This document shows positions 895 through 17,188 of a stretch of DNA of 17,515 bases, in pieces. Under the pieces are notes generated by a model that was not told the origin of the DNA, searched no databases, and saw only the letters and a program-made list of their open reading frames with translations. The position numbers and the translations under genes were made by a program. This stretch comes from Candidatus Thorarchaeota archaeon (GTDB taxonomy: Archaea; Asgardarchaeota; Thorarchaeia; Thorarchaeales; Thorarchaeaceae), in contig JAEORO010000081.1 of the NCBI GenBank assembly GCA_016840855.1, forward strand, positions 1-17,515. The letters run 5' to 3'. Position 1 is the first letter of the stretch, and the number at the start of each line of letters is the position of its first letter.

Positions 895-919
895 TGTGTC
901 TTCCCTTTAGTGGGCTATA

Positions 920-2008
920 CTAGCGCTTTCGAAGAAGGACAATGATTACCACTATACACGCCGTACCCCCAACAACACCTGGAATAATCCATTGCATTGG
1001 ATTTGGTGTAGATCCTGGACTCGTTGTTTTTTCAACAACTAGTAGATTCTCTGCATCGCAACAGGTGATTTCATTCAAGTATACATCCCATGCTTTGAAA
1101 TCGACAGTATAATTACCAATCTCGAGTCCCTCCACAAGACCAGTAAAGATGCCATCAGTGCTCGTTTCATCAAGAAATATGCATTGGACATGAACGTCCG
1201 ACACACGCTCACCTGTTGTTTCATTTAGAGCGAATATCTCAGCATCAACAGAGTAGACCCCCGTCACATCACTGAATTCCACTGTGAAACTAACATTAGT
1301 CCCGAGAGTACTAGACTGCGGAGATACTATCACATTCACTAATATTGGGGCATCAGCTTCATAGACTCCAATAGCTGTAGCAATTGCCTCACACATCTCT
1401 TCACGATAATATCTACTTCTGACTCCCGTCACTATGTTCTCGTCAATGATTGGTGGCACTAACTCATTGAATATAGCTCCTGCAGCTTCGTATTCAGAAG
1501 CATAGTCTGCATTTCCAGTGATGTTCTTTCCATCAATCACATCTGCCTCAGCAAGGACTCTCACACCACGGCACCATGCACTCACGACTATATCTTGATT
1601 CACTGCTTCTTTTATCAGATTGAGGGATGTCTGATTGGACAGGAGTAGTTCGTGGGACTCTCCTGGCATGACGGATATTGCATCGAATTGTGACACATCA
1701 TCTATTTCTGTCATCAATATATCAACAGAGAACAACTCATAACCTAGGTATCCACACGAAGTCAGAGTTTTATTCAATCCTGTTGTTGTGATACTCCATC
1801 CATACCGTTCAAAAATCTCAATAATAAATTGCACATTCGCCCCATAGTCATGATCCATTAACAATAAGATTTTGACCGAATCTTCAGAATATGTACCAAC
1901 ATCTGCTAATGCTACTGATGAATTGACCGAGCCTGAAAAAACAAGCACGAGGAGCAATCCTAGCAGAACTCCTCTAAAAACGCATCTTCTTGAGAATGAA
2001 CTCAACAT
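920..2008 (-). CDS. Exported, C-terminally membrane-anchored DJ-1/PfpI-family (class I glutamine amidotransferase-like) protein
   Basis: N-terminal signal-like segment (RRCVFRGVLLGLLLVLVFS). DJ-1-type motifs FDAISVMPG, VSAWCRGVRVLAEADVIDGKNITG and IIDENIVTG. A beta-rich Ig-like region and Pro/Thr/Ser linker follow, then a C-terminal TM helix ending LLRKR. Confidence 0.8.
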   Translation of the reverse strand: MLSSFSRRCVFRGVLLGLLLVLVFSGSVNSSVALADVGTYSEDSVKILLLMDHDYGANVQFIIEIFERYGWSITTTGLNKTLTSCGYLGYELFSVDILMTEIDDVSQFDAISVMPGESHELLLSNQTSLNLIKEAVNQDIVVSAWCRGVRVLAEADVIDGKNITGNADYASEYEAAGAIFNELVPPIIDENIVTGVRSRYYREEMCEAIATAIGVYEADAPILVNVIVSPQSSTLGTNVSFTVEFSDVTGVYSVDAEIFALNETTGERVSDVHVQCIFLDETSTDGIFTGLVEGLEIGNYTVDFKAWDVYLNEITCCDAENLLVVEKTTSPGSTPNPMQWIIPGVVGGTACIVVIIVLLRKR

Positions 2009-2122
2009 ACTCTATGACACCGGGTAGTATCTAGAATTGCAAATAACCTAATAATATGCCATTGGCGCAACTTTTTTACCAGAAAATACTAACTATAGTT
2101 AATTAAATGGTGGTGGGTTCTT

Positions 2123-2569
2123 ATGACCAAATTGATCGATGTTGAGATAAAGCAGAACACACTCGTACGTGCAAAACCGGATATGGTCTACGATGCTCTG
2201 ACTACAGCTGATGGTCTAAATGCTTGGTTCACCGTTGGGTCAGAGGTTGATCCAAGAACAGGTGGAACTATTACATTCCGCTGGAAGGACTGGGGTCCTG
2301 ATAAATACACAACTGAGGCAAAGGGTCCAGTTTTGGAAGCCAAGCGCCCTGAAAGGTTTGTGTTCCAGTGGAGTGCTGACAACCCAACTTATGCAACTAC
2401 AATTGAGATTGACTTTGAAGAAGTGGAAGAAGGTACTATTGTTCGTTTACGAGAACATGGATATCATGACACACCGTCTGGGAGAGCTGCCATGTTGGAG
2501 TGCGCTTCAGGTTGGGGTGAAGCCCTCACGCTCATGAAATACTATGTAGAACATGGAATCACTTACTGA
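2123..2569 (+). CDS. SRPBCC/AHSA1 (START-like) domain protein
   Basis: Motifs VYDALTTADGLNAWF, DPRTGG, PERFVFQW, GTIVRLREHG and GWGEALTLMK are typical of AHSA1-like proteins. GGTGG SD-like motif upstream. Confidence 0.9.
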   Translation: MTKLIDVEIKQNTLVRAKPDMVYDALTTADGLNAWFTVGSEVDPRTGGTITFRWKDWGPDKYTTEAKGPVLEAKRPERFVFQWSADNPTYATTIEIDFEEVEEGTIVRLREHGYHDTPSGRAAMLECASGWGEALTLMKYYVEHGITY

Positions 2570-2670
2570 GCTACTCTAGAATCTCCTAACAATTCATCGA
2601 ATTCTCATATGTAATGGCCTCCGTTATATGTGCCGAGTTATCCTTTATTTAGGCCACTTAATTCCAACCT

Positions 2671-3138
2671 TTAAGTCGAAGAAAATCTATAGGGGACATA
2701 GTCAGTCATAGGGACCTCTCTTCCGAGCATCTTCAAACCCATAGCAATTTGTCCTCTGTGATACGTAAAATGATTCACTAAATGGAAGTACATCTCATCT
2801 ATGTTTATCACTATAGTCTTTCCATCCCTTTCATCTTCAAAGCTTTCAATGATTCTATCCTCGGCTGCTTTTCGCCATTTTTTTAGATAATCAGAAATAA
2901 GCTGATAGAGCTCTTTTCTTGACATATTATAAAAATCAGGCTCTTCGGGGTTTCCGTCATACCAATCATGAAACCAATCCCACGTATCTTCAGCCAAGTG
3001 AATGTACCTTAGATGAATACTACCTGCACCCTCCCCAAGTGATTGTTCAAATTCGTTAATACCTAAGGTTTCAACTATTCTCCAGATTGAATTATTTGCC
3101 CAAGTCAAGTAGGCTGCCATCTTCTCAATGGGAAACAT
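2671..3138 (-). CDS. DinB/YfiT-family four-helix-bundle putative metalloprotein
   Basis: Motifs YLTWAN, GSIHLRYIHL and HLVNHFTYHRGQI match the DinB His triad; 155 aa. Confidence 0.9.
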   Translation of the reverse strand: MFPIEKMAAYLTWANNSIWRIVETLGINEFEQSLGEGAGSIHLRYIHLAEDTWDWFHDWYDGNPEEPDFYNMSRKELYQLISDYLKKWRKAAEDRIIESFEDERDGKTIVINIDEMYFHLVNHFTYHRGQIAMGLKMLGREVPMTDYVPYRFSST

Positions 3139-3194
3139 AAACTTCCAGTAAGACCCACATCCTAAAGAAGGTAGTCACATTGTCATATGTTAGT

Positions 3195-5297
3195 CTATTG
3201 GGATTCTAAAGATTGACTGAACGATTTCTTGAAATTTTCAGCTTTCTCATTAAATCCATATTTCTCCCACGCTTTCATGGCTGAATCAAACGTGTCCTTG
3301 GCCATGTTTAGATACTTCTCATCCGCCAATCTAATCCATGCTTTAGACAGGAGGTCCATAAGAGGAACTGACATCATTGCTAATTCATAGTCGAATTTAT
3401 GGGGGTCTTGTACAACAATTCTATTCAAGTCAACAACGCGATCTACAATCCTCTTCAATTCTGGTTTCTCAAGAGTGTCAGCAATTAGAGATGCATGATA
3501 GCTTGCAGACATTGCATCATCCCTAATCACTTCACCATACGATAGGAACCACTCTTGCACATCGAGTGCAATATCTACTCCCATTCTTAGAATCCTTGTA
3601 CGTATCTCATCATGAAGTAGTCTCGACGCCAGTGCAGTGAGCGAAGTCATTATGTTGCATAGGTATGTAGCATATGTGGTGGGTCGAGTAATTTGCGTGG
3701 CATCAATTGTGTTGATATCAAGAAGTTGCATAGCTGCATATAGTAACCGAATCTCCGCTTCCGGTAGTTTCTCAGCTCTGGATAGAACAGGCGAAATTGA
3801 GTTTGTCATAACAAAAAGAGAGAATCTAACTCTGGATTTTGGCCACTCTTCAACCATTGTTTCATAGATGTCACGAAGGAACTCAATAGTACGATGGATG
3901 TGGTTGTTTCTTGCATCTCCAGTTGACAGGAAGTAGTATTCAGCATGAGCAACACCCACACTTTGAAACACACTGTCAAGTGTGTACGCAAAGAGCGGCG
4001 TGTTTGTCATCATCAATTCTCTAAAGTAATCCCGATAGAGCTTGAGAACTTCTTCGAGGAAGACTTTACGTTCTCCAATCGATAAAACTGGTGATTCAGT
4101 CAAAGCCGTCAGCACTGCAATATAGTTCTGTAACTTCAATGATGCAGTGATTCCAATTTCAATTCCTTTCCCCTCTTTCTGCAATTCCCACATTAATTCG
4201 TCATTTGTTACCCACCTGATACTCCCAAGAATACTAGACATCTGAGTCTTGTATAAGTCAAGTTCATCCTTGAACCCATCGTAGCTTGTAATCGAATATA
4301 GTTTGTTGAAAATGTGGTTTCTATCTTGAATCGCCTCAATAAATGAACAGTAGACTTCTGACTTTCCCTTATAGAGTCTAACTAACCTACTAGAAAAATC
4401 AGGGTAGTCCACAACTCGAGGGTCAAGAAAGAGAAAACCAAGCATAAGATGTTCATCATCATCAATAAAATCAAAATGGTTCATTGACTCTCTAAAAACA
4501 CGCACATAGTCCGCAGGAATGACTTCACCTGCTACAGACCCAACAAGAACCTTGGCAAAATCAGTGAAAGGGTGATCATTAGGCAGCTTTGAAACAATTG
4601 CTCTTAACTCCGCTAATGTGGGGGGCACCGCTTTTGTCATAGAGTGTGCCAAAGCCCCCATCTTGATACTGAATATTCCTGCTACTACCCCATCATTGTC
4701 TATAGCAACTGCACATGCCTTGTCAAATTCCCCTCTCATAGCATATGCTAATGCATTACCCACTGAACCTATAGACACATCCTTTAGCTTTGCCCATTTC
4801 TCTTCTGGTTCAGGCCTAGCCAGAAGGTCATCAACTTCCAGTAATATTTTTGTAAAACGATCATCATTTCTTAGCTTATCATATACCGGGTTCCAGATAT
4901 CTGAAAGCGCTTCAGGAAATGATGTTTCAACATGATCTCTGACATAGGGATTAAGAATCCGCTCGATTATACTGATCTGTTCGTCATTAACGGAACCATC
5001 TGCGAATTGAATTTCAGACTCATCTATCTTCTCTGCAATGACTCGCAGAAGGCTATCCATATAGTCTTCTGCCTTGCTTACCAGTGCAATCACTGTGAAT
5101 CCTTTATGAGTTTCTGTAACAATCAGTGTGTTATCTTTGAACGCTAATCTTCTTACTTCGCCGCTACCTGTTATGTCACTCAATGCTCTGGTAGCTTCAA
5201 TCAGTGGCCCAAGAATTAGCTCTCCTTCGGCTTCCATTGAGCTCTTAAACTTGATAGGTACACCGCCTTCAGTCAGAACACCCATCAGTCTAATCAT
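3195..5297 (-). CDS. ~700-aa protein with an N-terminal longin-like domain and a long alpha-helical region
   Basis: The start is taken as ATG 5297 rather than TTG 5342. The N-terminus (MIRLMGVLTEGGVPIKFKS...LILGPLIEATRALSDITGSGEVRRLAFKDNTLIVTETHKGFTVIALVS...YMDSLLRVIAEKI) fits a longin beta-beta-alpha-beta-beta-beta-alpha pattern. The remainder looks helical. The ORF is solid; the domain call is by eye. Confidence 0.6.
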   Translation of the reverse strand: MIRLMGVLTEGGVPIKFKSSMEAEGELILGPLIEATRALSDITGSGEVRRLAFKDNTLIVTETHKGFTVIALVSKAEDYMDSLLRVIAEKIDESEIQFADGSVNDEQISIIERILNPYVRDHVETSFPEALSDIWNPVYDKLRNDDRFTKILLEVDDLLARPEPEEKWAKLKDVSIGSVGNALAYAMRGEFDKACAVAIDNDGVVAGIFSIKMGALAHSMTKAVPPTLAELRAIVSKLPNDHPFTDFAKVLVGSVAGEVIPADYVRVFRESMNHFDFIDDDEHLMLGFLFLDPRVVDYPDFSSRLVRLYKGKSEVYCSFIEAIQDRNHIFNKLYSITSYDGFKDELDLYKTQMSSILGSIRWVTNDELMWELQKEGKGIEIGITASLKLQNYIAVLTALTESPVLSIGERKVFLEEVLKLYRDYFRELMMTNTPLFAYTLDSVFQSVGVAHAEYYFLSTGDARNNHIHRTIEFLRDIYETMVEEWPKSRVRFSLFVMTNSISPVLSRAEKLPEAEIRLLYAAMQLLDINTIDATQITRPTTYATYLCNIMTSLTALASRLLHDEIRTRILRMGVDIALDVQEWFLSYGEVIRDDAMSASYHASLIADTLEKPELKRIVDRVVDLNRIVVQDPHKFDYELAMMSVPLMDLLSKAWIRLADEKYLNMAKDTFDSAMKAWEKYGFNEKAENFKKSFSQSLESQ

Positions 5298-5481
5298 TAC
5301 AAACACACTACCGTCTATGTAAACGTACTTTCCGTTCAACAAATTGCGAAAAAAGCCTTCTTGATATGGACTACACGCACCCGTCTACTTTTTTCAATCT
5401 CTCCTAACAATTTGATATAATTACATGAGTCTTAAATATCGCATATTATGGAAATAGACCCACCAATATCAGGTGAGATCA

Positions 5482-6351
5482 ATGTGCGAGTGGTGCTTCA
5501 AACACGGCGATGGTGGCAAATGGTACGAAAATGCTAGATTATACAGGAATGAACTTGCAGACGAGTACAATGCCAGTGAATACCTAGAAGAGCAATGGAA
5601 AAACATGGAAACCCTATTCATTCGAAAGATAATGGGCTTCAATTCAATTGGTCTGGGCTATAAGATGCAGATGCCTATCATTGGTCGTTTGATTCGAAAG
5701 GTTGTTGAAGGTCAAATTCATAGCGAGAAGAAGAACAGGAATCCTGTGAGAGCTGACGGTCACTTTGGCCAAGTGATTCCTCTGGAGGACGCTCAACACA
5801 TCATGGGAAACCTTGCTGCTGAACCCATCATCAAGAACTATTGTGTTTGCAGATGGATGCAGCGAGGTGTTAAAGATGCAGTCTGCATTAACTTCGGTCA
5901 ACTCTCTGAAGTGATTGAGAAGCACACAAGATACATTCCAGAAGGAGTGAAGTACCGGCTTGATCGTGAGGAAGCGATTCAGGCTCTGCAAGAACAAAAT
6001 GAGAGAGGTTATGTCGCATCAGTGTGGTTCCAACCAGTTCCATACATCAATGCGATTTGTTCGTGTGAAACTCCGGAATGCGGTGGATTTCGTCTAAGGA
6101 ATGACTTTGATTTGCGCACTATATACAAAGGAGAGTATCTGATTGATATCGACATCGATAAGTGCCAAGGCTGCAAGTCCTGCGTGAGAATGTGTCAGTT
6201 TAATGCACTAAGATACATCCCATCAGTAAACAGAGTGATTGTTGATTTGGATAAGTGCTTTGGCTGCGGAGTTTGTAGACATGCTTGTAAGCATGATGCT
6301 CTCAATTTAGTTCCAAGAGAGTCTGTACTAGGTCAAGCTGGGAAATATTGA
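5482..6351 (+). CDS. Cys-rich Fe-S protein with a C-terminal 2x[4Fe-4S] ferredoxin domain
   Basis: Two CxxCxxCxxxC motifs (CQGCKSCVRMC, CFGCGVCRHAC) plus MCEWCFKH, CVCR, CINF and ICSCETPEC. AGGTGAG SD precedes ATG 5482 (the ORF track starts at GTG 5473). Confidence 0.85.
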   Translation: MCEWCFKHGDGGKWYENARLYRNELADEYNASEYLEEQWKNMETLFIRKIMGFNSIGLGYKMQMPIIGRLIRKVVEGQIHSEKKNRNPVRADGHFGQVIPLEDAQHIMGNLAAEPIIKNYCVCRWMQRGVKDAVCINFGQLSEVIEKHTRYIPEGVKYRLDREEAIQALQEQNERGYVASVWFQPVPYINAICSCETPECGGFRLRNDFDLRTIYKGEYLIDIDIDKCQGCKSCVRMCQFNALRYIPSVNRVIVDLDKCFGCGVCRHACKHDALNLVPRESVLGQAGKY

Positions 6352-6361
6352 GGTGCCAAGG

Positions 6362-6646
6362 ATGGTAAAGAAGACAAAGATTACAATCGACTACTCAAGG
6401 TGTCACTCAGGTGCAAGTACTGATCCGCGTGATTGCAGAAAATGTCTATTGATCTGTGATCCAGCTGTTTTTCTGATGCATCCAACACTTGAAGACCATC
6501 CAGATCCCCACAATCCCGAAATCTGGAGAATTGATGCAATTTGGCTCTCAAAATGTACTGGTTGTATGAAATGTGTAGACATATGTCCTGAACAGGCAAT
6601 CACTGTCGTTCCTGGTGTTACCCTTTATCAGATGAAGGCCCGATGA
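6362..6646 (+). CDS. Small ferredoxin-like 4Fe-4S protein
   Basis: Motifs IDYSRC(x10)CRKCLLICDP and CTGCMKCVDICPEQAI. GAGGTG SD overlaps the upstream stop and precedes ATG 6362 (alternative GTG 6353). Its 3' end overlaps the convergent gene by 29 nt. Confidence 0.85.
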   Translation: MVKKTKITIDYSRCHSGASTDPRDCRKCLLICDPAVFLMHPTLEDHPDPHNPEIWRIDAIWLSKCTGCMKCVDICPEQAITVVPGVTLYQMKAR

Positions 6647-7610
6647 GCGTAGTTATTGGTCTTGACTGAAGGATGACTAGGCTACCATCTGGTTTGATAC
6701 ACCACTCGATATCCTGAGGGTACTCCATCTCACTCTCAATTTTCAATCCAACCTCTGCAATATCAAATAGGGTTTCATCATCCAGAGTATGTTTTGCCTG
6801 TCTATCCATTGGTGTTTTTTCCAATGTCAATTGTCCTCTCTTAGGAATGGAGGTAAAATTCTTTCCACCAAGAGTGCGTTGAATCACACTAGATGGAGTC
6901 TTCGTTAGTATATAGGTATCAGGTACTATCTTCCCTGAAACAAGAGCGTCACCAAAGCCCCAAGCTGCATTAATCAAAAGCTCATTTGCATTATTATTGG
7001 CAACATTTACAGTAAACATCACGCCTGAAATATCTGCAGGAATCATTTCTTGAACAATGACCGCCATCTTCATTTGTCTAAGAGGAATTCTCTTTGTTTT
7101 TAGATAGATTATAGCACGCTCTGAGAATGCTGATTGCCATACTTTCTTCACTGATTCTATGATTTTTCTAAAGCTCTTTATGCAGAGATAACTTTCTGCC
7201 TGTCCCGCGAATGAAATATCTCTGTGATCTTCTATTGTTGCTGATGACCGTACTGCAAAACCAAGCTCACTGCTCGTGCTTAGCTCATTGAGATTTTGAA
7301 TGCCAATTGTTATCTCAGACTCTAAACTTTTAGGTACTCGATACTTTTCTATCATCTTTTGCAGATTTTCTGAAATCTCTAAAATCTCTTCAAAATCTTC
7401 AGAATCGTCTGCTTGTTTCAGAAAATTGGCTAAATCTTGATTATTTTCTACCATTTGCGCAAACCCAATAGAGGAAATCGAAAACCCTGCTGGTGTGAGA
7501 AAACCGCTTTGTGCCAGTTTTACTAAATTTACAGCTTTTCCTCCATGATTTTCTACATCATCTACTTGAATCTCTTCAAGATTGTGAACAATTTGCAAAT
7601 AATCTATCAC
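6618..7610 (-). CDS. Stand-alone ATP-grasp (PPDK_N) subunit of a PEP-synthase/dikinase-like enzyme
   Basis: Motifs GGKAVNL, AVRSSATIED..SFAGQ, MAVIVQEMI, SGVMFT, WGFGDALVSG..PDTY, PQDIEW and LQSRPIT. The protein ends just after RPIT, with no His or pyruvate-binding domain. Confidence 0.92.
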   Translation of the reverse strand: MIDYLQIVHNLEEIQVDDVENHGGKAVNLVKLAQSGFLTPAGFSISSIGFAQMVENNQDLANFLKQADDSEDFEEILEISENLQKMIEKYRVPKSLESEITIGIQNLNELSTSSELGFAVRSSATIEDHRDISFAGQAESYLCIKSFRKIIESVKKVWQSAFSERAIIYLKTKRIPLRQMKMAVIVQEMIPADISGVMFTVNVANNNANELLINAAWGFGDALVSGKIVPDTYILTKTPSSVIQRTLGGKNFTSIPKRGQLTLEKTPMDRQAKHTLDDETLFDIAEVGLKIESEMEYPQDIEWCIKPDGSLVILQSRPITTLIGPSSDKG

Positions 7611-7957
7611 TCCGTGACAAATAACACACCGGTAGTCCCCTCTTGAGGTTGAATCATCACATATCTTCTATCCAGTTTTTCAGGACTTTCAATCATGGTG
7701 CCCATTAGTGCAGGTATCTCAAACTCTCTTGTGACTATCGCTAGATGAGAGCCAAGAGATCCTGTTAGGCACACGACGCCTGCAAGCCTTGATAGAATCG
7801 GTGCCAGAAAGGTTGTTCCCCCATCATTTACGAGGACTATCTTCCCATCGGGTCCTTCTTTTAGAAGCTGCAACACCTCTTTCATAGTAGTGATATATCT
7901 AAGTTCACCTTCTGCTGCAAGATTTAAAGAAATGAGGCCTCGTGCGATTTCTTTCAA
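7607..7957 (-). CDS. Stand-alone phospho-histidine swivel (PEP-utilizer mobile) domain protein
   Basis: GVVCLTGSLGSHLAIVTREFEIPALMG matches the SH.AIV.RE..IP phosphocarrier signature. Its stop overlaps the start of the ATP-grasp gene (GTGA). TTG start with GAAGGATGGT upstream. Confidence 0.9.
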   Translation of the reverse strand: MKEIARGLISLNLAAEGELRYITTMKEVLQLLKEGPDGKIVLVNDGGTTFLAPILSRLAGVVCLTGSLGSHLAIVTREFEIPALMGTMIESPEKLDRRYVMIQPQEGTTGVLFVTE

Positions 7958-7994
7958 CTTACCATCCTTCCTCGGACTTCAAGCGGGACATATT

Positions 7995-8038
7995 TAGCTT
8001 GTAATAAGCTTCGCGCTAGCTTCTGAAATGCTTAATAC
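7995..8038. promoter_or_regulatory. Four 11-bp-phased WWGCTT units in a divergent promoter (candidate operator array)
   Basis: TAGCTTGTAAT / AAGCTTCGCGC / TAGCTTCTGAA / ATGCTTAATAC start at 7995, 8006, 8017 and 8028. They sit next to a TATA-like TAAATATG on the minus strand at about 7989-7996. Confidence 0.45.
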
Positions 8039-8097
8039 TCACTATTTCTTGAAATTGGATTCAGAGTGCTATTATACATTTGATAGAAGTGGTGGCA

Positions 8098-9255
8098 ATG
8101 GACATCAGTGAAACAAACAAGATGATTCAACACATCTCAGATACTTTTTCTGAAATATTAGCTGAACGCGGGCTTCTTGAATCTGAAATATTCCCAACAA
8201 ATGAGTACATCTCAGTGTCATGCTACCATACCTATTATCATCTTTATGATGTTATGAAACAGGTCTGGGAAAAAACATCACCCGAAAAACTTGCCAAACA
8301 GAGTAAGGTTCTATTATCCGAAATACATGCTCTGTCCATTACGTATCTCTGGCTCTACTACTCACTCGGGCGTATGGGAATCGTCTTCGACAAATGTGAC
8401 AGTAATCCGAAGGAAGAAGCTGAGGAGAAACAGAAGCACTGGCAATGGATGCTTGAGAAGTGGCATAAGCTTGGTACAACCTACTTTAATACTGAAAAAC
8501 CAACAGTTGCTGCATCTGGTGGGAAGAATCTAGCTTTCGATGAGGATGTTTTGAACTGGATAAAGGATAAACTTGAACCAGTTGGAATTGACCAAGTCAA
8601 GAAAATTCGACGTATAATGGGTCAGATAGAGCTCTATGCCTTCATGGATGAGTGTGAGGCACGTGCCAAGCTTATCGACCACGGACCATATCGAATTTCA
8701 GAAGATGAGTTTCTTGTTATGACTGAGTTCACTAGGTTGCATGATGGAAAGGGTGACCTCTGGCTACCTTGGTCTGACACTGAAGCAAAACTCCCATCTG
8801 CTAAGCTAGGCGTGGCAATGACGATTGAAGGGGCTTCGGCTACATTCAACGATATTGGCACAATGACTATTGAGCCTGGTGACTACTCAAATCTCGTCAC
8901 CAGTATTGCAGCATATACAGAACGAGGAAACAAGATTATTCCTCTAGGTCTTGATGAGCTACCTGCATATGGAGATGCTGCAGAAGCTGCTCTCTCTGAG
9001 CTATACATGAAGTTTGCAGACTGGGACAAGAAGAAGCTCATGCTTGCTGGCGCTGTGGCATACTGGAGAGGGTTTGCTCGATATACTGATAAAGTGGGTA
9101 TCACAGGAAAGATTGACTGGAGTATCTCACAGTCTGTTATAGATGAGTATGTGCCATTCTTTATGGACAATGATGCAGATCCGGCTTTCATCAGATTTGG
9201 CCGATTTGATGACGAAATGGAGGAAGATCCAACTCTCTACTTATTACCCGAGTAG
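8098..9255 (+). CDS. Soluble ~385-aa protein of unknown function; candidate acceptor-binding subunit of the split dikinase
   Basis: Long clean ORF (ATG 8098 after GGTGG; the ORF track starts at TTG 8080) divergent from the His/ATP-grasp genes. Notable segments: ERGLLESEIFP, ELYAFMDECEAR..LIDHGPY, LPWSD, FNDIGT. Function is inferred from context only. Confidence 0.7.
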   Translation: MDISETNKMIQHISDTFSEILAERGLLESEIFPTNEYISVSCYHTYYHLYDVMKQVWEKTSPEKLAKQSKVLLSEIHALSITYLWLYYSLGRMGIVFDKCDSNPKEEAEEKQKHWQWMLEKWHKLGTTYFNTEKPTVAASGGKNLAFDEDVLNWIKDKLEPVGIDQVKKIRRIMGQIELYAFMDECEARAKLIDHGPYRISEDEFLVMTEFTRLHDGKGDLWLPWSDTEAKLPSAKLGVAMTIEGASATFNDIGTMTIEPGDYSNLVTSIAAYTERGNKIIPLGLDELPAYGDAAEAALSELYMKFADWDKKKLMLAGAVAYWRGFARYTDKVGITGKIDWSISQSVIDEYVPFFMDNDADPAFIRFGRFDDEMEEDPTLYLLPE

Positions 9256-9264
9256 GTGCTCGTA

Positions 9265-10164
9265 ATGGTAGAGCTTCGTGATACTGATGAATATGCACAT
9301 GAGCCTAATGAGCTTCTTGAGTGGCGCGAGAGCTATTATTTCAACTGGGTGGATCTAGATACAGGTATCTCTGGGTTTTCAACGATTGGACTTCTGCCAA
9401 ACGTATCAAAAAGAGAGTTTGTTTTCGCTCTTTTCTATGATGGAAAACGCGAGGCATACTTCGTTGAGCCTAAGGGTCCAACACCAGAGAACTTCTATGA
9501 ATCTCTCTCAGATGGATTCCTCTCCTTTGAGGTTATTGAGCCATTCAAAGAATGGGCACTCCGGTACAACGGGACGAACCTCAAAGCCAACATTCGTTGG
9601 ACCGGTCGATTTCCAGCTTATGATTTCGGTCATGGGAGTGGTACTTCATGGACGGGTCACTTTGAGCAATCAGGAATAGCAAAAGGAAAAATCGAGTTTA
9701 CAAGTGGAGAAATATTGGAATTTAATGGATATGGAGAACGTGACAAGAGCTGGGGCACTCGAAACTGGCATATCGACAGCTGGTTTGCACTTCATGCTCA
9801 GTTTGATGAGTTATCCATTGGGCTTCGTCTTGACTCTGTTGATGGTCAGTTCCATCCATCTGGTGGAATTAGTACAGTTGAAGGTCACATTCCTATCATA
9901 AAAGTAGAACTTGACACCATCTATCATGAAAAGCAACACAACCTTCCAGTTGGTGCTTTGACAAAGGTCTATGGCAAGGATGGAAGCTGCTATACTCTAC
10001 AATCTTCAATTATCTCTCCAACGAGTTTTATCAGATTTGCACGTGAGTTCGATGAAGGGACAACAGAGCTCTTTGAAGAGATGGCTATTCATCAATGTGA
10101 TGAATTAGGGGCTCGTGGTACAGGACTAATCGAGTGGTTGTTCACTCACTTGAAAGAAAAGTGA
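9265..10164 (+). CDS. AttH/CrtC/tocopherol-cyclase-like double beta-barrel protein
   Basis: Motifs HEP....WRESYYFNWVD, HFEQSG...G.I and GYGERDKSWGTRNW, in a beta-rich sequence. AGGTG SD overlaps the upstream TAG and precedes ATG 9265. Confidence 0.7.
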   Translation: MVELRDTDEYAHEPNELLEWRESYYFNWVDLDTGISGFSTIGLLPNVSKREFVFALFYDGKREAYFVEPKGPTPENFYESLSDGFLSFEVIEPFKEWALRYNGTNLKANIRWTGRFPAYDFGHGSGTSWTGHFEQSGIAKGKIEFTSGEILEFNGYGERDKSWGTRNWHIDSWFALHAQFDELSIGLRLDSVDGQFHPSGGISTVEGHIPIIKVELDTIYHEKQHNLPVGALTKVYGKDGSCYTLQSSIISPTSFIRFAREFDEGTTELFEEMAIHQCDELGARGTGLIEWLFTHLKEK

Positions 10165-10203
10165 CAGAAGGACCAAGAAATGGGCCCTCTGTTTCATTAT
10201 GTT

Positions 10204-11961
10204 TTACCAGCTTAAACCAAGTATCGATGCAAGCAGCCATGCACACAGAATGGAGTTGATCATTGCCCCAAGCCAACGATTGCCTGTCACGCGATAGGCA
10301 AACATGGTGATTACTGTGCACACTGCGAACCATGGTGCAAATGCGTAGAAGAATAACCACGAGTAACCAATCATGTCTGGAACAAGAGGTGCTCCTGCGA
10401 GGTATCCTCCAAAGAATTCGAACGCGATAAGAATGAGGTAGGGAATTGTCTTGATAAACACTGATTTCACTGTCCAATTGAATTGAACTTTAATCCATGT
10501 GCCTGAACTCTCTGGCAGCATAATTCCCGTCAACCACGCTCCATCTACTAGCGTATATACAAGAAATACTACAAAGTATAGTGGTACCAGTCTTGCTTGT
10601 CCGAGTGTTAAGTCGTGAAGCCCAGGAAGGAAGCATCTCAAGTCCAAGACAAGTCCCAGATCGACGAGTAGGGTCAGCAAATACAACCATACAAACACAA
10701 TGAGAGTTAAAACAAGGGTCTTCAATAAATAGGGTAAGGGCTTCTGTTTCCTTGTTTCAAACAACTCACTTAGCGTTGGTGATGACACTTCATTACTTAT
10801 GCTGTTTTTCTCACTTTGAGAAACCCCCTTTCTTCGCAGGATTACAAAAAGAGCAAGTAAGGCTACAAGTCCACTTCCTAGAATCCATGCTACTACTGCT
10901 AACCCATAAAATGTTGGGAAGGGTATTACTCTCGCTAATAGAAGACCAACAGCAAGAAATGGGAAGAAAGTGAGAACACCAATCAATCCCAATATCATTC
11001 CGTAAAGATAGAACGCCTTCTTTGTGGCTGGTTCGTCAGTAGGCTTTCCTTTCAAGTCTGAGAAAACGGGCATGTCAATTAGAATAGCAATCAGAGGGAA
11101 AATCGTAAGAAGCGCACCAATCAATCCAAGGAGTCCACCAAGCAACCAAAATGGATACAGGATAGATGTACTCTCTATCCAGTGCTCGTCTTCAATTCCT
11201 CCCTTCAGACTATTCTTCATCCATTCTACGCTTTCGCTAACAATGACTGGATTAATAGTTTCGAAAAGGTGATTTGTAGGTGGAAACACAGCCCTCCTCG
11301 CTGTGTTGTTACTAAAGTCACCATAGGTCGTTCCCGGCACAACGCCAGTTACATTAAACCATGGGTCTAACAAGTCGGGATTTTGCGGATATCTGGATAA
11401 AGAATCGAAGGTACCTGTTGCTATGAGAGTGTTTGGAATGTATGGCATATTTTCACGAAATCCGGAACCAACAAGAACCAGAGCACGTACATAGACACTA
11501 GACTGATTTATAGCAGCCCATGCAATACCACCACCCATGCTGTGGCCTATCAAACCAATCTGTGTATTATCAACAAAATTTAAGGATGCAATATAATCCA
11601 AAGCTGCGGTTCCACTACCTGTTCCTGGCTCAGAATTACCATGACCATTCGCATCGATTGTAAGTGCCACAAATCCCCGCCGAGCGAGTTCGATACCAAA
11701 GGCCATTAGCCACTCTTTGCTCTGTTGTGACCCATGAATCACAACGACGCTTGGTAGTGGGTTAGTGTCAGTCGCATAATTTGGTTTCTGAAGTGTACTA
11801 TGAATCAAGGATCCATCAAGGGCTTGAAAATCAACCTCTGTGACAGTTATTGAACCGAACCCGCTCTGCACGCTTGCTGCTAATAGGGTCCCCGAGAGCA
11901 TGATGATCAAGCCAAGACTGAATACTAAGTGTCTACGTCTTATGTTCAAGTTTGTGCCCAC
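10204..11961 (-). CDS. Membrane-bound alpha/beta hydrolase (N-terminal TM, hydrolase domain, C-terminal multi-TM region)
   Basis: Motifs VVVIHG, LARRGFVALTIDANGHGNS and the nucleophile elbow GHSMGG, with candidate Asp (GTFD) and His (TNHLFE). The C-terminal ~310 aa holds many hydrophobic helices. Confidence 0.88.
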   Translation of the reverse strand: MGTNLNIRRRHLVFSLGLIIMLSGTLLAASVQSGFGSITVTEVDFQALDGSLIHSTLQKPNYATDTNPLPSVVVIHGSQQSKEWLMAFGIELARRGFVALTIDANGHGNSEPGTGSGTAALDYIASLNFVDNTQIGLIGHSMGGGIAWAAINQSSVYVRALVLVGSGFRENMPYIPNTLIATGTFDSLSRYPQNPDLLDPWFNVTGVVPGTTYGDFSNNTARRAVFPPTNHLFETINPVIVSESVEWMKNSLKGGIEDEHWIESTSILYPFWLLGGLLGLIGALLTIFPLIAILIDMPVFSDLKGKPTDEPATKKAFYLYGMILGLIGVLTFFPFLAVGLLLARVIPFPTFYGLAVVAWILGSGLVALLALFVILRRKGVSQSEKNSISNEVSSPTLSELFETRKQKPLPYLLKTLVLTLIVFVWLYLLTLLVDLGLVLDLRCFLPGLHDLTLGQARLVPLYFVVFLVYTLVDGAWLTGIMLPESSGTWIKVQFNWTVKSVFIKTIPYLILIAFEFFGGYLAGAPLVPDMIGYSWLFFYAFAPWFAVCTVITMFAYRVTGNRWLGAMINSILCAWLLASILGLSW

Positions 11962-12062
11962 CTTGTGAACGCGAGCAAAGTCATGTTCAACTCGGTCTTT
12001 TATTTCAACCGACTAATAAAACGTAATCCATATCAACTATAGAATGTTGAGGATAATTACTG

Positions 12063-12698
12063 ATGCCAGACTGGGACAAAATCTTCACAGAAAGAGGTCG
12101 AGTATTTACTGACCCTCACTCAGACATGGGACGAGTTGCGAAATTAGTTCAGAAAAATAATGGTTTACGTATCCTTGATCTTGGCTGCGGTTCCGGTCGA
12201 CATGTTGTATACCTTACACACCTCGGTTTTGATGTATACGGCTTTGATTCCTCTTCAAGAGCTATCAGTATGGCCCAAGAATGGCTCGAAGAAGAATCTC
12301 TAATTGCTGAGCTCAACGTACATAAGATGGAGAATCCATTTCCTTATGATGATAACTTCTTTGATGCAATTATCTCCATTCAAGTTATCCACCACAATCT
12401 TATGAAAGATATCAGAAAGACAATCTGTGAAATTGAGAGGGTCTTGAAACCAGGCGGTTTCCTCTTTGTCACTTTTCCTATACTACGTGCTGCGCCTGCG
12501 AGTGAGGAGGATGACTGGAAGCTGGTAGAAGTTGAGGAAGGAACATATATTCCCCAAAGTGGCTGGGAAAGCGGAATACCTCATCACTATTTCACCGAGG
12601 AGGAGATACCAATTGAGTTTCGGTCATTCGAAATTCTTGATATCTATCTGGATGAAACTAACCATCGCTGCGTTATTGCTAGACTGCCCATGAGTTAG
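12063..12698 (+). CDS. Class I SAM-dependent methyltransferase
   Basis: Motifs ILDLGCGSGRH, YGFDSS, FPYDDNFFDAIISIQVIHH and ERVLKPGG. Confidence 0.93.
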   Translation: MPDWDKIFTERGRVFTDPHSDMGRVAKLVQKNNGLRILDLGCGSGRHVVYLTHLGFDVYGFDSSSRAISMAQEWLEEESLIAELNVHKMENPFPYDDNFFDAIISIQVIHHNLMKDIRKTICEIERVLKPGGFLFVTFPILRAAPASEEDDWKLVEVEEGTYIPQSGWESGIPHHYFTEEEIPIEFRSFEILDIYLDETNHRCVIARLPMS

Positions 12699-13888
12699 AT
12701 TTGATCTTCCAATCCAAATGTTGGGAAAACAAGACTCTTTATTTTCTCTATCGTATCATCCACTGCGCGACGTATCTTTGGATACTGGTCGCTAGGCATC
12801 CTGAAAGGCCTGCTAGTCCATCCTCCTCTCTTCACTTGGAAGCCATGTTTAAGACATAGCTCAATCCAATTGGCTGGAATTGTCGGTGGCAATGCAATGT
12901 CCGCGATGTCTGCTAATATAATCGTCCAAATCTTTGCAGCAGCCACAGCATTGTATCCACCGCCTCCTGTCACAACCAACTTTCTGGTTCCTAAGTGAAC
13001 AAGCTGACGAACAGTCTTAGAAGTTCGCTGATAGGTGTCATAGGTCAGCATCAAGTCCGTGAGTGGGTCATTCATATAACCATCTGCGCCTACATCCCAG
13101 AATACAAAATCTGGTTTATATGCCAACCAGATTGGAACCACCACATCCTCGAACGCTCGCCACCACTCGACATCATCCGTGAGCGGTGGGAGTGGTATGT
13201 TTACATTGTACCCTATGCCATCACCAATGCCCACTTCTTCCACTCTACCCGTTCCTGGAAAGAATCCCATACTCAGCTCATGAAGTGATATTGTCAGGAC
13301 ATTAGGGTCATTATAGAATGCATGCTGCACCCCATCCCCATGATGAGCATCGGTATCAAGATAGAGCATTTTCTTCCCCGGGTATTTTTGAAGATACTTC
13401 TTTATGGCAACCACACAGTCATTGTAATAACAGAAACCTGCAGCTTGACTCTCAAACGCATGATGAAGCCCTCCAAAGAATGTCACTGCATCTTCAAACT
13501 TGCCATCAGCGACTCCCATGACTGCATCGATAGTCCCACCAACAATGTAGCTTGCATATTGGTCAACACCAGGAAAGATAGGACATTCATTGGTATCTAA
13601 TCCAAAACGTGCAGAGAACGCAGTGCCCATGTTTCCAAAGAGTTCGAGTGTTTCGATATATGATGGGTCATGAAACAAAAGAAGCTCTTCACGTGTAGCA
13701 CGACGCATTTGTTGAATAGATATCCTTGGGCTTTTCAGCAATCCTGACATCACTGGTAGATTCCACGTCACCTCAAGTCGTGCTCGATTCCAGTACGGAT
13801 TAGGCTCTGCCCTCATTCTATCTAACTCATCGATGCCATCTAGGCTAAGGATTGCCTCCGGATCGAATAGGGCAGTCAGTTCTGACAA
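12695..13888 (-). CDS. acuC: AcuC/class I histone deacetylase-family Zn-dependent deacetylase
   Basis: Motifs ATREELLLFHDPSYI, GGLHHA, GFCYYND, YLDTDAHHGDGVQ, TISLHE, FFPGTG, NIPLPP, GADGYMNDPL and GGGGYN. GGAGG lies 7 nt upstream of the TTG start. The symbol denotes the family, not a proven role. Confidence 0.9.
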   Translation of the reverse strand: MSELTALFDPEAILSLDGIDELDRMRAEPNPYWNRARLEVTWNLPVMSGLLKSPRISIQQMRRATREELLLFHDPSYIETLELFGNMGTAFSARFGLDTNECPIFPGVDQYASYIVGGTIDAVMGVADGKFEDAVTFFGGLHHAFESQAAGFCYYNDCVVAIKKYLQKYPGKKMLYLDTDAHHGDGVQHAFYNDPNVLTISLHELSMGFFPGTGRVEEVGIGDGIGYNVNIPLPPLTDDVEWWRAFEDVVVPIWLAYKPDFVFWDVGADGYMNDPLTDLMLTYDTYQRTSKTVRQLVHLGTRKLVVTGGGGYNAVAAAKIWTIILADIADIALPPTIPANWIELCLKHGFQVKRGGWTSRPFRMPSDQYPKIRRAVDDTIEKIKSLVFPTFGLEDQI

Positions 13889-14016
13889 AGGATATCCTCC
13901 CGATATTGAATCGGACTTGGACGTCTGGTTCTATTCTCCTCTTATGTTTGATGGCGACGAATCCTGATAGTCCCTTCGAAAGCCTCATTATTCCTGATTT
14001 CAAAGGTAGACCTGCA

Positions 14017-15024
14017 ATGTCAAAATATGATTTGATTAAGGAAACGCTTCTTGGCAACTTAAGCGAACAGATTCCCATCTCTCTCTGGAAACATCATCCT
14101 GAAGCAGACAGAACTCCTGAAGGTCTTGCCAAAGCAGAGATTGACTTCCACAAATTAATGAACCACGATTTGATGAAGATCTCTTTCTTTGGTCATTTTC
14201 CTTGTATAGATTTTGGATGCACTGCGATTTATGATGGTGCCATAACAGGATCAACTACCCTGACCACAGCGGCAATCAACAAGGTGAGTGATTGGGAAAC
14301 CCTAGAACCACTTGATGTGAATGCAGGTGAGTTTGGAAGACAGATTCATGCAGTCGAGTTAATTCAAAAATACGCACATGGCGTAGTACCAACAATGGCC
14401 ACCGTTTTCGATCCTACAATGGTCGCAGATAAAATCTCTGACAAGAATTTACAAAAATATGCAGATGAGAACCCTGAGGTATTGAAAGGTGCACTAGAAA
14501 TAATAACTGACATCATGGTTGATTTTGCCAGTGCTGCAATAGATGCAGGAGCTGATGGCATCTTTTTGGCTTCCCAGCACTCTACAAAGTCATCAGTGAC
14601 AGATAAACAATACAAAGAATTTGTGTTGCCTTATGATCTAAAATTCATCACTCGACTCAGAGGAAAGGCGAAATTCATTGTCCTACATCTCCATGCACGA
14701 GAAGAAAATGAGGAGCTCAGGTTTGACCAGATTGCCAAAACACCCGGAGTTGCCGGTATTAATTGGGAAGATCAGACCTCGGCTTTGTCACTGAAACAAG
14801 GCAAGAAACGGTTCAGGGGCGCAGTTCTTGGTGGGATTGATCATAATGGAGTCTTTAGGACTGGAAATGCAGAAGACGCGCGGAAACAGGTACTCCAAGC
14901 AATAGATGAAGCTGGTCCTGACCGTTTGATTATAGCCCCAGGGTGCGTTATAACCGTTGATACCCCACAGGAGAACATTATCGCAGTAAGAGATGCAGTA
15001 AAATCAGTCAATCTGTATGAGTAG
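14017..15024 (+). CDS. Uroporphyrinogen decarboxylase-superfamily (URO-D/MtaA-like) TIM-barrel protein
   Basis: Motifs PISLWKHHP, ATVFDP, AIDAGADGIFLA, YKEFVLPYD, VLHLH, GINW, VLGGID and LIIAPGCV. ATG 14017 follows AAAGGT; the ORF-track start at 13852 overlaps the divergent deacetylase and is unlikely. Confidence 0.85.
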   Translation: MSKYDLIKETLLGNLSEQIPISLWKHHPEADRTPEGLAKAEIDFHKLMNHDLMKISFFGHFPCIDFGCTAIYDGAITGSTTLTTAAINKVSDWETLEPLDVNAGEFGRQIHAVELIQKYAHGVVPTMATVFDPTMVADKISDKNLQKYADENPEVLKGALEIITDIMVDFASAAIDAGADGIFLASQHSTKSSVTDKQYKEFVLPYDLKFITRLRGKAKFIVLHLHAREENEELRFDQIAKTPGVAGINWEDQTSALSLKQGKKRFRGAVLGGIDHNGVFRTGNAEDARKQVLQAIDEAGPDRLIIAPGCVITVDTPQENIIAVRDAVKSVNLYE

Positions 15025-15035
15025 GAGGATGAGAA

Positions 15036-16751
15036 ATGACCAGAAATGCTGAGGTGGCTCGGATTCTCAAAGAGATTGGTCTATTGCTCGAAGTCGAGGG
15101 CAAAGACCGTTTCAAACCTCTTGCATACTATCGTGGAGTAAGATCTATCACCTCTCTTGGAGAGGATATCGAAGCTGTGGCAAAACGCGATGGGCTCATG
15201 GATATCCCTGGCATTGGTAAAGGTCTTGCAGAAGTAATCAAAACCTATCTTGAAACTGGCGAAGTTGAGCTTCTTAATAAACTTAGAACACGTGTTCCAG
15301 TGAAAGTATTAGAGCTTGACGCAATCCCGGGAGTCGGTCCAAAAACAATCAAACTTGTGTACGAGAAGCTAGGTGTCAAAGACATAGATTCACTTGAACA
15401 GGTTGCCAATGAGGGGAAGCTCTCAGTCTTACCAGGTCTTGGTGAGAAAACCCAAGTACAAATCATTGAGGGAATTCAGATTGTAAGAGCCGGAATGGAG
15501 AGGACTCTCCTCTCTGATGCCATCTCCGTAGCTGAGAGAATCGAGAACGAACTTAGCAAATTGAAGGTCATAGAACAACTTGCGATTGCTGGATCCACAC
15601 GTCGCCGAAGAGAAACCATTGGTGATCTTGACATAATAGTTGTTACAACAGATTCTGAAACCGTAATGGGCTCTTTTGTCAGCTCAGAAGGAGTAACGGC
15701 AGTTCTCGCTCATGGACCCACAAAGTCCTCAGTGCGATTAGACTCCGGTCTGCAAGTAGACCTCAGAGTACTACCTAGTGAGAGTTTTGGCGCAGGTCTT
15801 CAATATTTCACCGGGAGTGTTGATCACAACGTCAAATTGCGTTCAATCGCGCAAAAGATGAAATTACGCCTTAACGAATATGGTTTGTATAAAGACAAGA
15901 AGAGAGTGGCAGGCGAGGATGAAGAGGGTATCTATAGGGCACTTGGACTTCAATATGTTCCTCCTGAATTGAGAGAGGACAAAGGTGAGATCGAAGCCGC
16001 TCAGAAAGGAGAACTCCCTAATCTTGTAACAATGAATGAAATTCATGGAGACCTACATAGTCACACAGACCAGTCAGATGGAAAGAACACGCTTGAAGAG
16101 ATGCTGGATGCTGCTGAGGGACATGGCTACAACTACTATTGTGTTTCAGACCATACAAAGAGTCTCACAATCGCAAATGGAATGGATGAAGAACGCCTTC
16201 TGAAGAGACTAGAGGAGATTGATGGGCTCAATGCATCTGGTCGCTGGAAGATGAAGATACTGAAAGGTGCTGAGGTAGATATCCTAGCTGATGGTAGCCT
16301 TGACATTGAAGACACTGTTTTGTCGCAGTTAGATATTGTCACAGTTTCTATTCACAGTCGGATGAAAGATAAGAAAAACACCATGACTGAACGAGTCTGC
16401 CATGCTTTAGAAAACAAGTACATTCACATTCTGGGTCATCCGACTGGTCGTCTAATCGGCAAGCGATCTGAGTTTGAGATTGACTTAGAGCAAGTATTTG
16501 AAACAGCCAAAAAACACAATGTAATCATGGAGCTAAATGCTCATCCGCAAAGATTGGACCTAAATGCTGGTAACTTGCGGGTTGCCACTAAGATTGGTCT
16601 GAAGATAGCGATAAATACAGACGCCCACGCAATCTCAGAACTTGATAATATGCGATTTGGAGTCTACCAAGCTCGTCGTGGTTGGCTAACTCCCGATGAT
16701 GTCATCAATACATATTCTTTGAAGAAACTTATGAAATTCATCAAGAAATAG
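15036..16751 (+). CDS. polX: Family X DNA polymerase with C-terminal PHP domain (PolX)
   Basis: HhH motifs (IPGIGKG, IPGVGPKT, LPGLGEKT), AGSTRRRRETIGDLDI (DxD), QVDLRV and LQYFTGS. PHP motifs DLHSHT, SDH, GAEVDI, GHPTGR, ELN and NTDAH. GGAGG SD. Confidence 0.96.
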   Translation: MTRNAEVARILKEIGLLLEVEGKDRFKPLAYYRGVRSITSLGEDIEAVAKRDGLMDIPGIGKGLAEVIKTYLETGEVELLNKLRTRVPVKVLELDAIPGVGPKTIKLVYEKLGVKDIDSLEQVANEGKLSVLPGLGEKTQVQIIEGIQIVRAGMERTLLSDAISVAERIENELSKLKVIEQLAIAGSTRRRRETIGDLDIIVVTTDSETVMGSFVSSEGVTAVLAHGPTKSSVRLDSGLQVDLRVLPSESFGAGLQYFTGSVDHNVKLRSIAQKMKLRLNEYGLYKDKKRVAGEDEEGIYRALGLQYVPPELREDKGEIEAAQKGELPNLVTMNEIHGDLHSHTDQSDGKNTLEEMLDAAEGHGYNYYCVSDHTKSLTIANGMDEERLLKRLEEIDGLNASGRWKMKILKGAEVDILADGSLDIEDTVLSQLDIVTVSIHSRMKDKKNTMTERVCHALENKYIHILGHPTGRLIGKRSEFEIDLEQVFETAKKHNVIMELNAHPQRLDLNAGNLRVATKIGLKIAINTDAHAISELDNMRFGVYQARRGWLTPDDVINTYSLKKLMKFIKK

Positions 16752-16766
16752 GAACCATTTGTAGAT

Positions 16767-16821: not shown

Positions 16822-16853
16822 CCAAAACTGAGCAGTATTTCTTGTGAAATATC

Positions 16854-16955: not shown

Positions 16956-16962
16956 GGTCGAA

Positions 16963-17058: not shown

Positions 17059-17064
17059 ATTTGG

Positions 17065-17181: not shown

Positions 17182-17188
17182 GCACCAA

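Follow-up and report, generated by a model that had tools for sequence, protein, structure and literature searches.

The genes between positions 6618 and 10164 of the 17,515-nucleotide stretch analysed here (the window: contig JAEORO010000081.1 of Candidatus Thorarchaeota archaeon, positions 1 to 17,515) encode the ATP-grasp and phospho-histidine domains of a dikinase as separate proteins, together with a 385-amino-acid (385-aa) protein and a beta-barrel protein of the AttH fold. This gene set is a real, conserved and unstudied system, and our literature searches found no paper that describes it. The contig (G000:C10 in our sample) comes from a Thorarchaeota-type Asgard archaeon, and the closest homologues are proteins from Thorarchaeota metagenome-assembled genomes (MAGs); the source genome is 92% complete with about 6% (6.3%) contamination. 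We scanned 16 open reading frames (ORFs) of the window against Pfam and NCBIfam and used the same 16 as queries in the comparison of loci. The features of the core locus are:

6618-7610, minus strand: ATP-grasp (PPDK_N) subunit, 330 aa; Pfam PPDK_N (PF01326), E 9.5e-81, profile positions 4-312 of 328
7607-7957, minus strand: stand-alone phospho-histidine swivel, 116 aa; Pfam PEP-utilizers (PF00391), E 1.4e-9; catalytic His71
7958-8097, no strand: divergent intergenic region between the swivel and 385-aa genes, 140 bp, from the sequence
8098-9255, plus strand: 385-aa protein, proposed acceptor (substrate-binding) module; without Pfam or NCBIfam match
9256-10164, plus strand: 302-aa AttH-fold beta-barrel, proposed phosphate-eliminating lyase; Pfam DUF7065, E 1.8e-10

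On the minus strand the swivel gene precedes the ATP-grasp gene and shares four nucleotides with it (GTGA on the coding strand, tcac at 7607-7610 of the plus strand). The two genes are translationally coupled and their domain identities follow directly from the matches listed above. On the other side of the spacer, which holds TATA-like AT-rich stretches (judged by eye only), the 385-aa gene may start at ATG 8098 (385 aa) or at TTG 8080 (391 aa), and its homologues begin at the ATG. Its stop codon (TAG, 9253-9255) abuts the GTG at 9256 that starts the beta-barrel gene, for which an ATG at 9265 is an alternative start. ORF calls and sequence thereby reproduce all of the coordinates and sizes, the GTGA overlap and the 140-bp divergent spacer given in an earlier model-made annotation of this DNA (the initial annotation).

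That annotation also described the ATP-grasp and swivel signatures as intact and the window as devoid of a pyruvate-binding barrel, and both descriptions stand. The PPDK_N match is nearly full length, and His71 of the swivel is invariant in 17/17 aligned orthologues within the motif GGxGSHLAIxxRE. In the same 17 of 17, a glycine occupies the position of the phospho-regulated threonine which, according to PMC12167813, belongs to the canonical swivel motif of phosphoenolpyruvate (PEP) synthase and pyruvate phosphate dikinase (PPDK). NCBIfam models for PEP synthase, RPH and PigC match the ATP-grasp protein over only their first ~320 residues, in every case far under the cut-offs: the PEP synthase equivalog models reach 252 bits against a cut-off of 598 (NF005057) and 238 against 740 (TIGR01418), and RIF_Ptrans_rph and PigC match at E 1e-69 and 2e-60. 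The Pfam scan found PEP-utilizers_C, the pyruvate-binding TIM barrel, in 0/16 window ORFs. A check of the rest of the genome for a separate pyruvate-binding subunit found no free one, the sole PEP-utilizers_C match lying inside a complete 938-aa one-chain PPDK on contig C144.

The 385-aa family and its gene neighbourhood

The homology search with 8098-9255 that the initial annotation had suggested examined 4906 candidates and returned 267 homologues of near-equal length at E <= 1e-3; the 385-aa gene is therefore not a chance ORF. An exhaustive phmmer search matched 152 cluster representatives at E <= 1e-3, 71 at <= 1e-10 and 10 at <= 1e-30, and the ESM Atlas gave no usable named match. Thor-type and Methanomethylicia-type proteins are 57% identical, and mean column identity is 66% in 15 sequences. 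Across 19 deep homologues G91, R92, R189, Y198 and P260 are invariant, and N7, R24, S29, P33, G196, P197, G318, Y322 and G334 are nearly so. To judge from the alignment, the conserved arginines would suit a phosphoryl-transfer site.

The lack of any Pfam or NCBIfam match to the 385-aa protein extends to PDB sequences, among which the family profile had 0 matches at E <= 1. Its AlphaFold2 (AF2) model (predicted local distance difference test (pLDDT) 82, predicted template-modelling score 0.83) consists of a helical scaffold around a seven-strand sheet. Compared whole, not split into domains, with PDB folds, the model gave a best Foldseek E of 0.47 and a best VIA-align Z of 5.0 (3cwx, 91 residues). 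A similarity to the substrate domains of RPH-type enzymes, for which the initial annotation had proposed to look, was not detected: hhalign of the family against the middle domain of the RPH-type protein encoded in this genome gave a probability of 0.2%, and RPH chains were absent from the Foldseek and VIA-align rows for the model, an absence that does not exclude the fold. The protein cannot be placed with the substrate domains of RPH or HpeH, and the missing fold match is no proof of a new fold.

Gene neighbourhoods were compared in 80 loci, the best 80 of 120 confirmed among 154 pattern matches, using tblastn with all 16 window proteins; 57 of these loci have at least 3 kb on both sides of the 385-aa gene (full-flank subset). 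They come from Thor-, Hermod-, Loki-, Hod-, Atabey-, Jord- and Frey-type Asgard archaea, Methanomethylicia and Bathyarchaeia, and gave the following counts:

DUF7065 beside the 385-aa gene: 79/80 loci; 57/57 full-flank
Swivel beside the 385-aa gene: 66/80 loci; 48/57 full-flank
PPDK_N near the 385-aa gene: 47/80 loci; 37/57 full-flank
292-aa Fe-S protein near the 385-aa gene: 47/80 loci; 37/57 full-flank
97-aa ferredoxin near the 385-aa gene: 44/80 loci; 35/57 full-flank

The lone locus without DUF7065 (L045) stops inside the 385-aa gene. Homologues of the 385-aa protein do accompany split dikinase genes, which is what a co-occurrence check outlined in the initial annotation had been meant to establish. 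Order and strand differ between lineages. In Thor-type loci the pairs diverge and the Fe-S genes lie beyond PPDK_N in convergent orientation; in Loki, Hod and Atabey types the Fe-S genes come after DUF7065 and share its strand; and in Jord and Frey types the DUF7065-like, swivel and 385-aa genes lie on one strand beside a second 385-aa paralogue. The association holds despite these changes, supporting the view that the four genes belong together. The ordinary synteny neighbours of the Thor type are mostly lost elsewhere, as exemplified by an alpha/beta hydrolase present downstream of DUF7065 in 23/28 Thor-type and 1/31 Loki-type loci. A query with the swivel-385-aa fusion matched 117 of the 399 Asgard-phylum genomes sampled.

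Two Fe-S genes, outside the coordinates considered in the initial annotation, belong to the conserved set in many lineages and accompany it in Thor- and Loki-type loci:

5473-6351, plus strand: 292-aa Fe-S protein; Pfam Fer4 families at residues 224-282 only
6353-6646, plus strand: 97-aa ferredoxin-like protein; Pfam Fer4_6 and Fer4

The Cys-rich N-terminal ~220 aa of the larger protein (CEWC, CVCRW, CSCETPEC) have no Pfam match, gave only unnamed clusters in the ESM Atlas and precede a C-terminal 2x[4Fe-4S] ferredoxin domain. In the 47 loci that have it, the gene occupies two different positions relative to the other genes, and the 97-aa protein, where present, always comes directly after it. 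It is the most conserved protein of the neighbourhood, with 61-70% identity between Thor and Loki/Hod types (about 40% for the 385-aa protein) and 37% in the Atabey-type locus.

Swivel and 385-aa-like regions also occur within single proteins. The swivel is fused N-terminally to a 385-aa-like region in 3 of 23 distant representatives (P0143, P0174 and P0264; the other 20 have no Pfam match), and the named members of the fusion clusters are Gordonia otitidis and Citricoccus zhacaiensis. Bacterial relatives, located by tblastn against plasmids, were found on catabolic megaplasmids. Plasmid pRB98 of Rhodococcus oxybenzonivorans encodes a 125-aa swivel with a 398-aa homologue of the 385-aa family (hhalign 99.2%), a 542-aa swivel-385 fusion followed by a 381-aa DUF7065-like protein (hhalign 84%, E 7e-6; fgfRDhSWGvR), and a third swivel with a 525-aa family homologue (hhalign 98.5%), in addition to a PPDK_N/swivel protein, a biotin-carboxylase set and a tyrosine phosphatase. 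Plasmid pA of R. pyridinivorans has the same layout by annotation. Methylibium petroleiphilum RPME01 carries, in a row, a DUF7065/DUF7064 protein, a 415-aa family homologue, a 153-aa protein and a swivel. Swivel, 385-aa homologue and DUF7065-like protein thus recur as a trio in two bacterial phyla, where they lie in catabolic clusters that also encode CoA ligases and carboxylases.

Some bacterial family members (P0264, P0187, P0216 and L129:7004-9385) are 726-794 aa long and carry a C-terminal extension with a winged-helix-like segment, ending in a conserved ...YHTVWFxLHEDLLRxxGRER. On the Rhodococcus plasmids the winged-helix-like segment is a separate 202-aa gene beside an AMP-binding protein and a biotin carboxylase set.

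Other observations concern individual loci. A second, fully syntenic copy of the module lies on contig C136 of the source genome (L099:1-6046) and comprises the alpha/beta hydrolase, DUF7065, a 385-aa protein at 83% identity, swivel, PPDK_N, the 97-aa ferredoxin and the start of the 292-aa Fe-S gene; this copy is a genuine duplication or else, given the 6.3% contamination, belongs to a second strain that was binned into the MAG. In the window, inspection by eye of the 585-aa product of the hydrolase gene (10204-11961, minus strand) shows an alpha/beta-hydrolase domain in its N-terminal part and, C-terminal to that, a long hydrophobic region; this gene also lies downstream of DUF7065 in 4/8 Hermod-type loci. 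A 715-aa ORF at 3195-5342 (minus strand), with no Pfam or NCBIfam match, recurs upstream in 14/80 loci, all of Thor type. At the usual swivel position, Hermod-type loci L031-L035, L042 and L043 (for example L033:6434-6919) have a 146-207-aa hydrophobic, membrane-like protein. We considered this gene, upstream of the 385-aa gene, as a divergent swivel and rejected it on alignment, which shows a small membrane protein. Likewise, a 137-aa ORF opposite the swivel gene in L068 proved to be an ORF-calling artefact, tblastn placing the swivel there. In the Jord/Frey-type loci L055 (3331-13384) and L051, two 385-aa paralogues flank a DUF7065-like region and a swivel on one strand, with three tandem B12-binding radical-SAM genes (537-552 aa) directly downstream. 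Finally, L081 (DATKTW010000080.1), labelled as a Nanopelagicaceae bacterium, has a full Loki-type module; its genome sits in the Asgard phylum, in a phylum sample that included the Hermod-type genomes G001-G003, and the label or bin looks wrong.

The beta-barrel protein and the proposed reaction

The AF2 model of the beta-barrel protein (pLDDT 93.5) has an AttH-like double beta-barrel fold. Foldseek ranked three entries for 25-phosphosteroid lyase (25-PSL) first (9g4c, 9g2i and 9fzn; E 6e-14 to 5e-13, TM-score 0.72-0.73, identity 14-15%), with 9g4c at E 6.2e-14 and TM-score 0.73. These entries were released in January 2026; our searches found no paper on 25-PSL structures. Lower matches, at about E 1e-9, were the pericyclases Phm7, Fsa2 and CghA, kievitone hydratase (7a0t, E 2.9e-9) and AttH (2ich, E 3.5e-9). 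A profile of 20 orthologues found only 25-PSL among PDB sequences (E 9.7e-4, residues 11-170 against 17-182); a single DUF7065 sequence gave chance-level matches only. The family-invariant R162-D163-K164-S165-W166-G167-x-R169 aligns with GSRDRSWGVR of 25-PSL, so that the two share an RD(K/R)SWGxR motif. The product-complex entry 9g4c has N at the motif Asp, probably an inactivating mutation.

DUF7065 was the sole Pfam family to match at E <= 0.01, with no match to CrtC or an AttH-type lipocalin-like domain. At the level of fold, the Foldseek matches bear out the AttH/CrtC-like label of the initial annotation, with 25-PSL ranking first. Because the beta-barrel is closest to this lyase in model and motif, it is more likely to be a phosphate-eliminating lyase than a CrtC-type hydratase. 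Literature searches for DUF7065, DUF7064 and Rv3169 returned only mentions of Rv3169 in Mycobacterium tuberculosis genomics papers.

Contig C210 of the source genome (L098:1604-5963) encodes an 888-aa RPH-type one-chain dikinase (PPDK_N at 22-313, swivel at 810-880), directly followed by a 320-aa DUF7065+DUF7064 protein and a 221-aa histidine-phosphatase-family protein. A pairing of dikinase and DUF7065-like protein also occurs in two Methanomethylicia genomes (L107 and L108).

We propose, with a probability of roughly 0.55, that the genes at 6618-10164, joined in many lineages by the Fe-S pair at 5473-6646, form an ATP-driven phosphorylation-elimination system. On the best reading of the data, an AMP-forming three-piece dikinase and a phosphate-eliminating lyase would together carry out the ATP-driven dehydration of a probably lipophilic alcohol. 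By analogy with the families concerned, the 330-aa ATP-grasp protein would bind ATP and move its beta,gamma-pyrophosphoryl group to His71 of the 116-aa swivel; release of the gamma-phosphate as Pi would then yield His~P and AMP, the route taken by PEP synthase, RPH and PpsAB/HpeHI. The swivel would then dock on the 385-aa protein, which linkage and fusions suggest may stand in for an RPH-type substrate domain or the pyruvate barrel, and would phosphorylate an acceptor bound there that is not pyruvate and whose hydroxyl reacts poorly. The AttH-fold protein would next eliminate the phosphate to give an alkene, as its remote homology and shared motif with 25-PSL suggest, with Asp163 of RDKSWG as the proposed catalytic residue. 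The net result would be an irreversible, AMP-forming dehydration. In the weakest step of the scheme, the Fe-S pair may exchange electrons with the product or with a subsequent step.

An energetic argument is consistent with this scheme. According to PMC8449060, a tertiary 25-phosphoester roughly equals ATP in phosphoryl-transfer potential, which makes the reaction of the ADP-forming 25-HSK fully reversible; with a dikinase that forms AMP, such a phosphorylation would become irreversible. We guess that the substrate is a lipophilic, possibly isoprenoid, alcohol.

Comparative genomics supports the core of the initial annotation, in which the 385-aa protein was cast as the acceptor piece of a three-piece dikinase for a non-pyruvate substrate and the beta-barrel protein as acting on the same compound. 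Co-location, swivel-385 fusions, the bacterial trio and the lack of a free pyruvate subunit point to such a role for the 385-aa protein, and the genomic evidence likewise favours a shared compound for the beta-barrel protein.

Points of strain and alternative explanations

Several observations weigh against this proposal. The link to 25-PSL is remote, at 14-15% identity, and the AttH-like fold also houses hydratases and pericyclases; the NCBIfam model Rv3169_fam scores 37.2 bits against a cut-off of 150, and no paper that we found states the role of the motif Asp. The most conserved loop of the 385-aa model (residues ~211-235, LWLPWS) has a pLDDT of only 51-58. Linkage has gaps that count against a strict four-gene operon. 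Of the module, all 8 of the Hermod-type loci have the 385-aa/DUF7065 pair only, behind a small membrane-protein gene, with swivel or PPDK_N in the flanks of 0/8; each of three Hermod-type genomes searched has one swivel-PPDK_N pair elsewhere, which in the only locus of sufficient extent adjoins a second, divergent 385-aa paralogue. Seven Methanomethylicia/Bathyarchaeia-type and 6 Jord/Frey-type loci have a swivel and no PPDK_N nearby, and two Methanomethylicia genomes searched carry PPDK_N only in one-chain proteins of 858-914 aa. The attachment of the Fe-S pair to the module is drawn from neighbourhood in 47/80 loci, and the C-terminal winged-helix domain of some bacterial homologues hints at regulatory uses.

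These points bear differently on the alternatives. If the dikinase is correctly read, the beta-barrel could still be a hydratase, isomerase or cyclase of the AttH, CrtC, kievitone hydratase or pericyclase kind in place of a simple phosphate-eliminating lyase, acting on a non-phosphorylated compound or using phosphate as a leaving group for cyclisation only. The Foldseek matches near 1e-9 to Phm7, Fsa2, CghA, 7a0t and 2ich would fit such an enzyme, as would the low identity to 25-PSL and the marginal sequence match at E 9.7e-4. We nevertheless consider it doubtful, since 25-PSL comes first by about four orders of magnitude in E-value, is the sole PDB chain found by the family profile and has the RD(K/R)SWGxR motif in common with it, and DUF7065 pairs repeatedly with kinases, both split and one-chain (on C210 and in the two Methanomethylicia genomes). 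A different departure from the proposed system, in which the locus would hold an ordinary PEP synthase or PPDK in split form with its pyruvate-binding barrel encoded elsewhere, draws on the fact that PEP synthase models are the best NCBIfam matches of both the ATP-grasp and the swivel proteins. It is hardly credible: all of these scores fall far short of the cut-offs, the regulatory Thr is replaced by Gly in every swivel orthologue aligned, and the only PEP-utilizers_C match in a 92%-complete genome lies within the 938-aa PPDK. Because the genome's only pyruvate-binding barrel sits in a complete one-chain PPDK, the gene set is not an ordinary PEP synthase; nor is it a broken one.

The remaining alternatives concern how the two gene pairs relate. 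They might be functionally separate neighbours that share a divergent promoter region by chance, as the Hermod-type loci, which keep the 385-aa/DUF7065 pair with no dikinase gene in their flanks (0/8), and the absence of PPDK_N from 20/57 full-flank loci might indicate. Against this stand the swivel-385-aa fusion proteins and an association that outlasts changes of gene order among archaeal lineages and is seen again in Actinomycetota and Betaproteobacteria; moreover, the Hermod-type genomes do encode swivel-PPDK_N elsewhere, in one locus beside another 385-aa paralogue, and we find a chance arrangement quite improbable. Alternatively, the pairs could be connected by regulation, the 385-aa protein being a ligand sensor or a target of phospho-histidine relay in a phosphorelay like those of PTS enzyme I or the PPDK-derived protein kinases, of which VadK is a regulatory example. 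A 793-aa homologue from R. opacus B4 has a TrmB-like match at 606-654 (E 3.4e-4, under the Pfam cut-off), P0264, P0187 and P0216 have long C-terminal extensions, and tyrosine-phosphatase genes lie near homologues in Rhodococcus. Yet the Pfam scan found no DNA-binding domain in the archaeal 385-aa proteins; the 57% identity between Thor- and Methanomethylicia-type proteins and the Arg and Tyr invariant across deep homologues fit an enzyme; coupling to an enzyme-fold partner is tight (79/80 loci); and in bacteria the genes sit among catabolic ones, including those for CoA ligases and carboxylases. A regulatory relay is thus unlikely, and the phosphorylation-elimination system remains our preferred interpretation.

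Relation to known systems and significance

The proposed system resembles several known ones in part. PEP synthase and PPDK likewise combine a PPDK_N ATP-grasp domain with a PEP-utilizers swivel bearing a histidine motif of the GGxxSH type; unlike the proteins described here, they are single chains with a PEP-utilizers_C barrel and the regulatory Thr, where here the proteins are separate, there is no barrel and the position is Gly. RPH and PigC/RedH/HapC use the same ATP-grasp and swivel chemistry but are single chains of ~860-890 aa in the order ATP-grasp, substrate domain, swivel, and the genome's own RPH-type protein on C210 is distinct from the split set. The closest relatives are HpeHI, CreHI and PpsAB (phenylphosphate synthase), known split dikinases with, as here, a separate ATP-grasp subunit (in our case the 330-aa PPDK_N protein). 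In the paper that describes them (PMC12167813), the swivel His carries the beta-phosphate and the acceptor is a non-pyruvate hydroxyl, which is the likeness to the scheme proposed here; PpsA and CreH share with the present swivel a Ser before the His, and these dikinases, like the present set, lack the regulatory Thr. According to the same paper, the swivel of HpeH, CreH and PpsA forms the C-terminal domain of a protein of ~70 kDa, which in its N-terminal part is similar to the domain of RPH that binds rifampin. By contrast, the swivel here is free-standing (116 aa) in a system of three pieces, and N-terminal where it is fused.

For the second half of the scheme, the precedent is 25-HSK and 25-PSL of Sterolibacterium denitrificans which, according to PMC8449060 and PMC11061730, phosphorylate an unreactive alcohol and then eliminate the phosphate to form an alkene, as we propose here. 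Unlike the present set, 25-HSK is described (PMC8449060) as a ~40-kDa kinase that forms ADP and carries a phosphotransferase annotation; it is no dikinase, and its gene is unlinked to that of the lyase. As for 25-PSL, it is the closest PDB relative of our beta-barrel in both structure and sequence, yet the two are only 14-15% identical, and the hosts here are anaerobic archaea.

We tentatively suggest that Asgard archaea, Methanomethylicia, Bathyarchaeia and some catabolic bacteria possess a new modular class of dikinase, built on an acceptor protein of new fold and a free phospho-histidine shuttle, which with the phosphate lyase and the Fe-S pair might dehydrate unactivated alcohols, such as tertiary isoprenoid or steroid-like ones, in an oxygen-independent, AMP-forming reaction that a redox step may follow. 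Were this so, the swivel-histidine dikinase scheme would extend to a three-protein form and gain a widespread acceptor-binding domain without a known fold, and the kinase-lyase logic, so far reported only for anaerobic degradation of the steroid side chain in one bacterium, would broaden. A common block of "hypothetical" genes, matched by the fusion query in 117 of the 399 Asgard-phylum genomes, would acquire a testable function, for which the plasmid homologues of Rhodococcus and Methylibium offer cultivable systems in which to search for the substrate. Irreversible, ATP-driven dehydration of poor alcohols would be of interest for anaerobic hydrocarbon and lipid turnover and for biocatalysis, and the closest archaeal relatives of eukaryotes could be able to remodel or degrade isoprenoid lipids in anoxic sediments.

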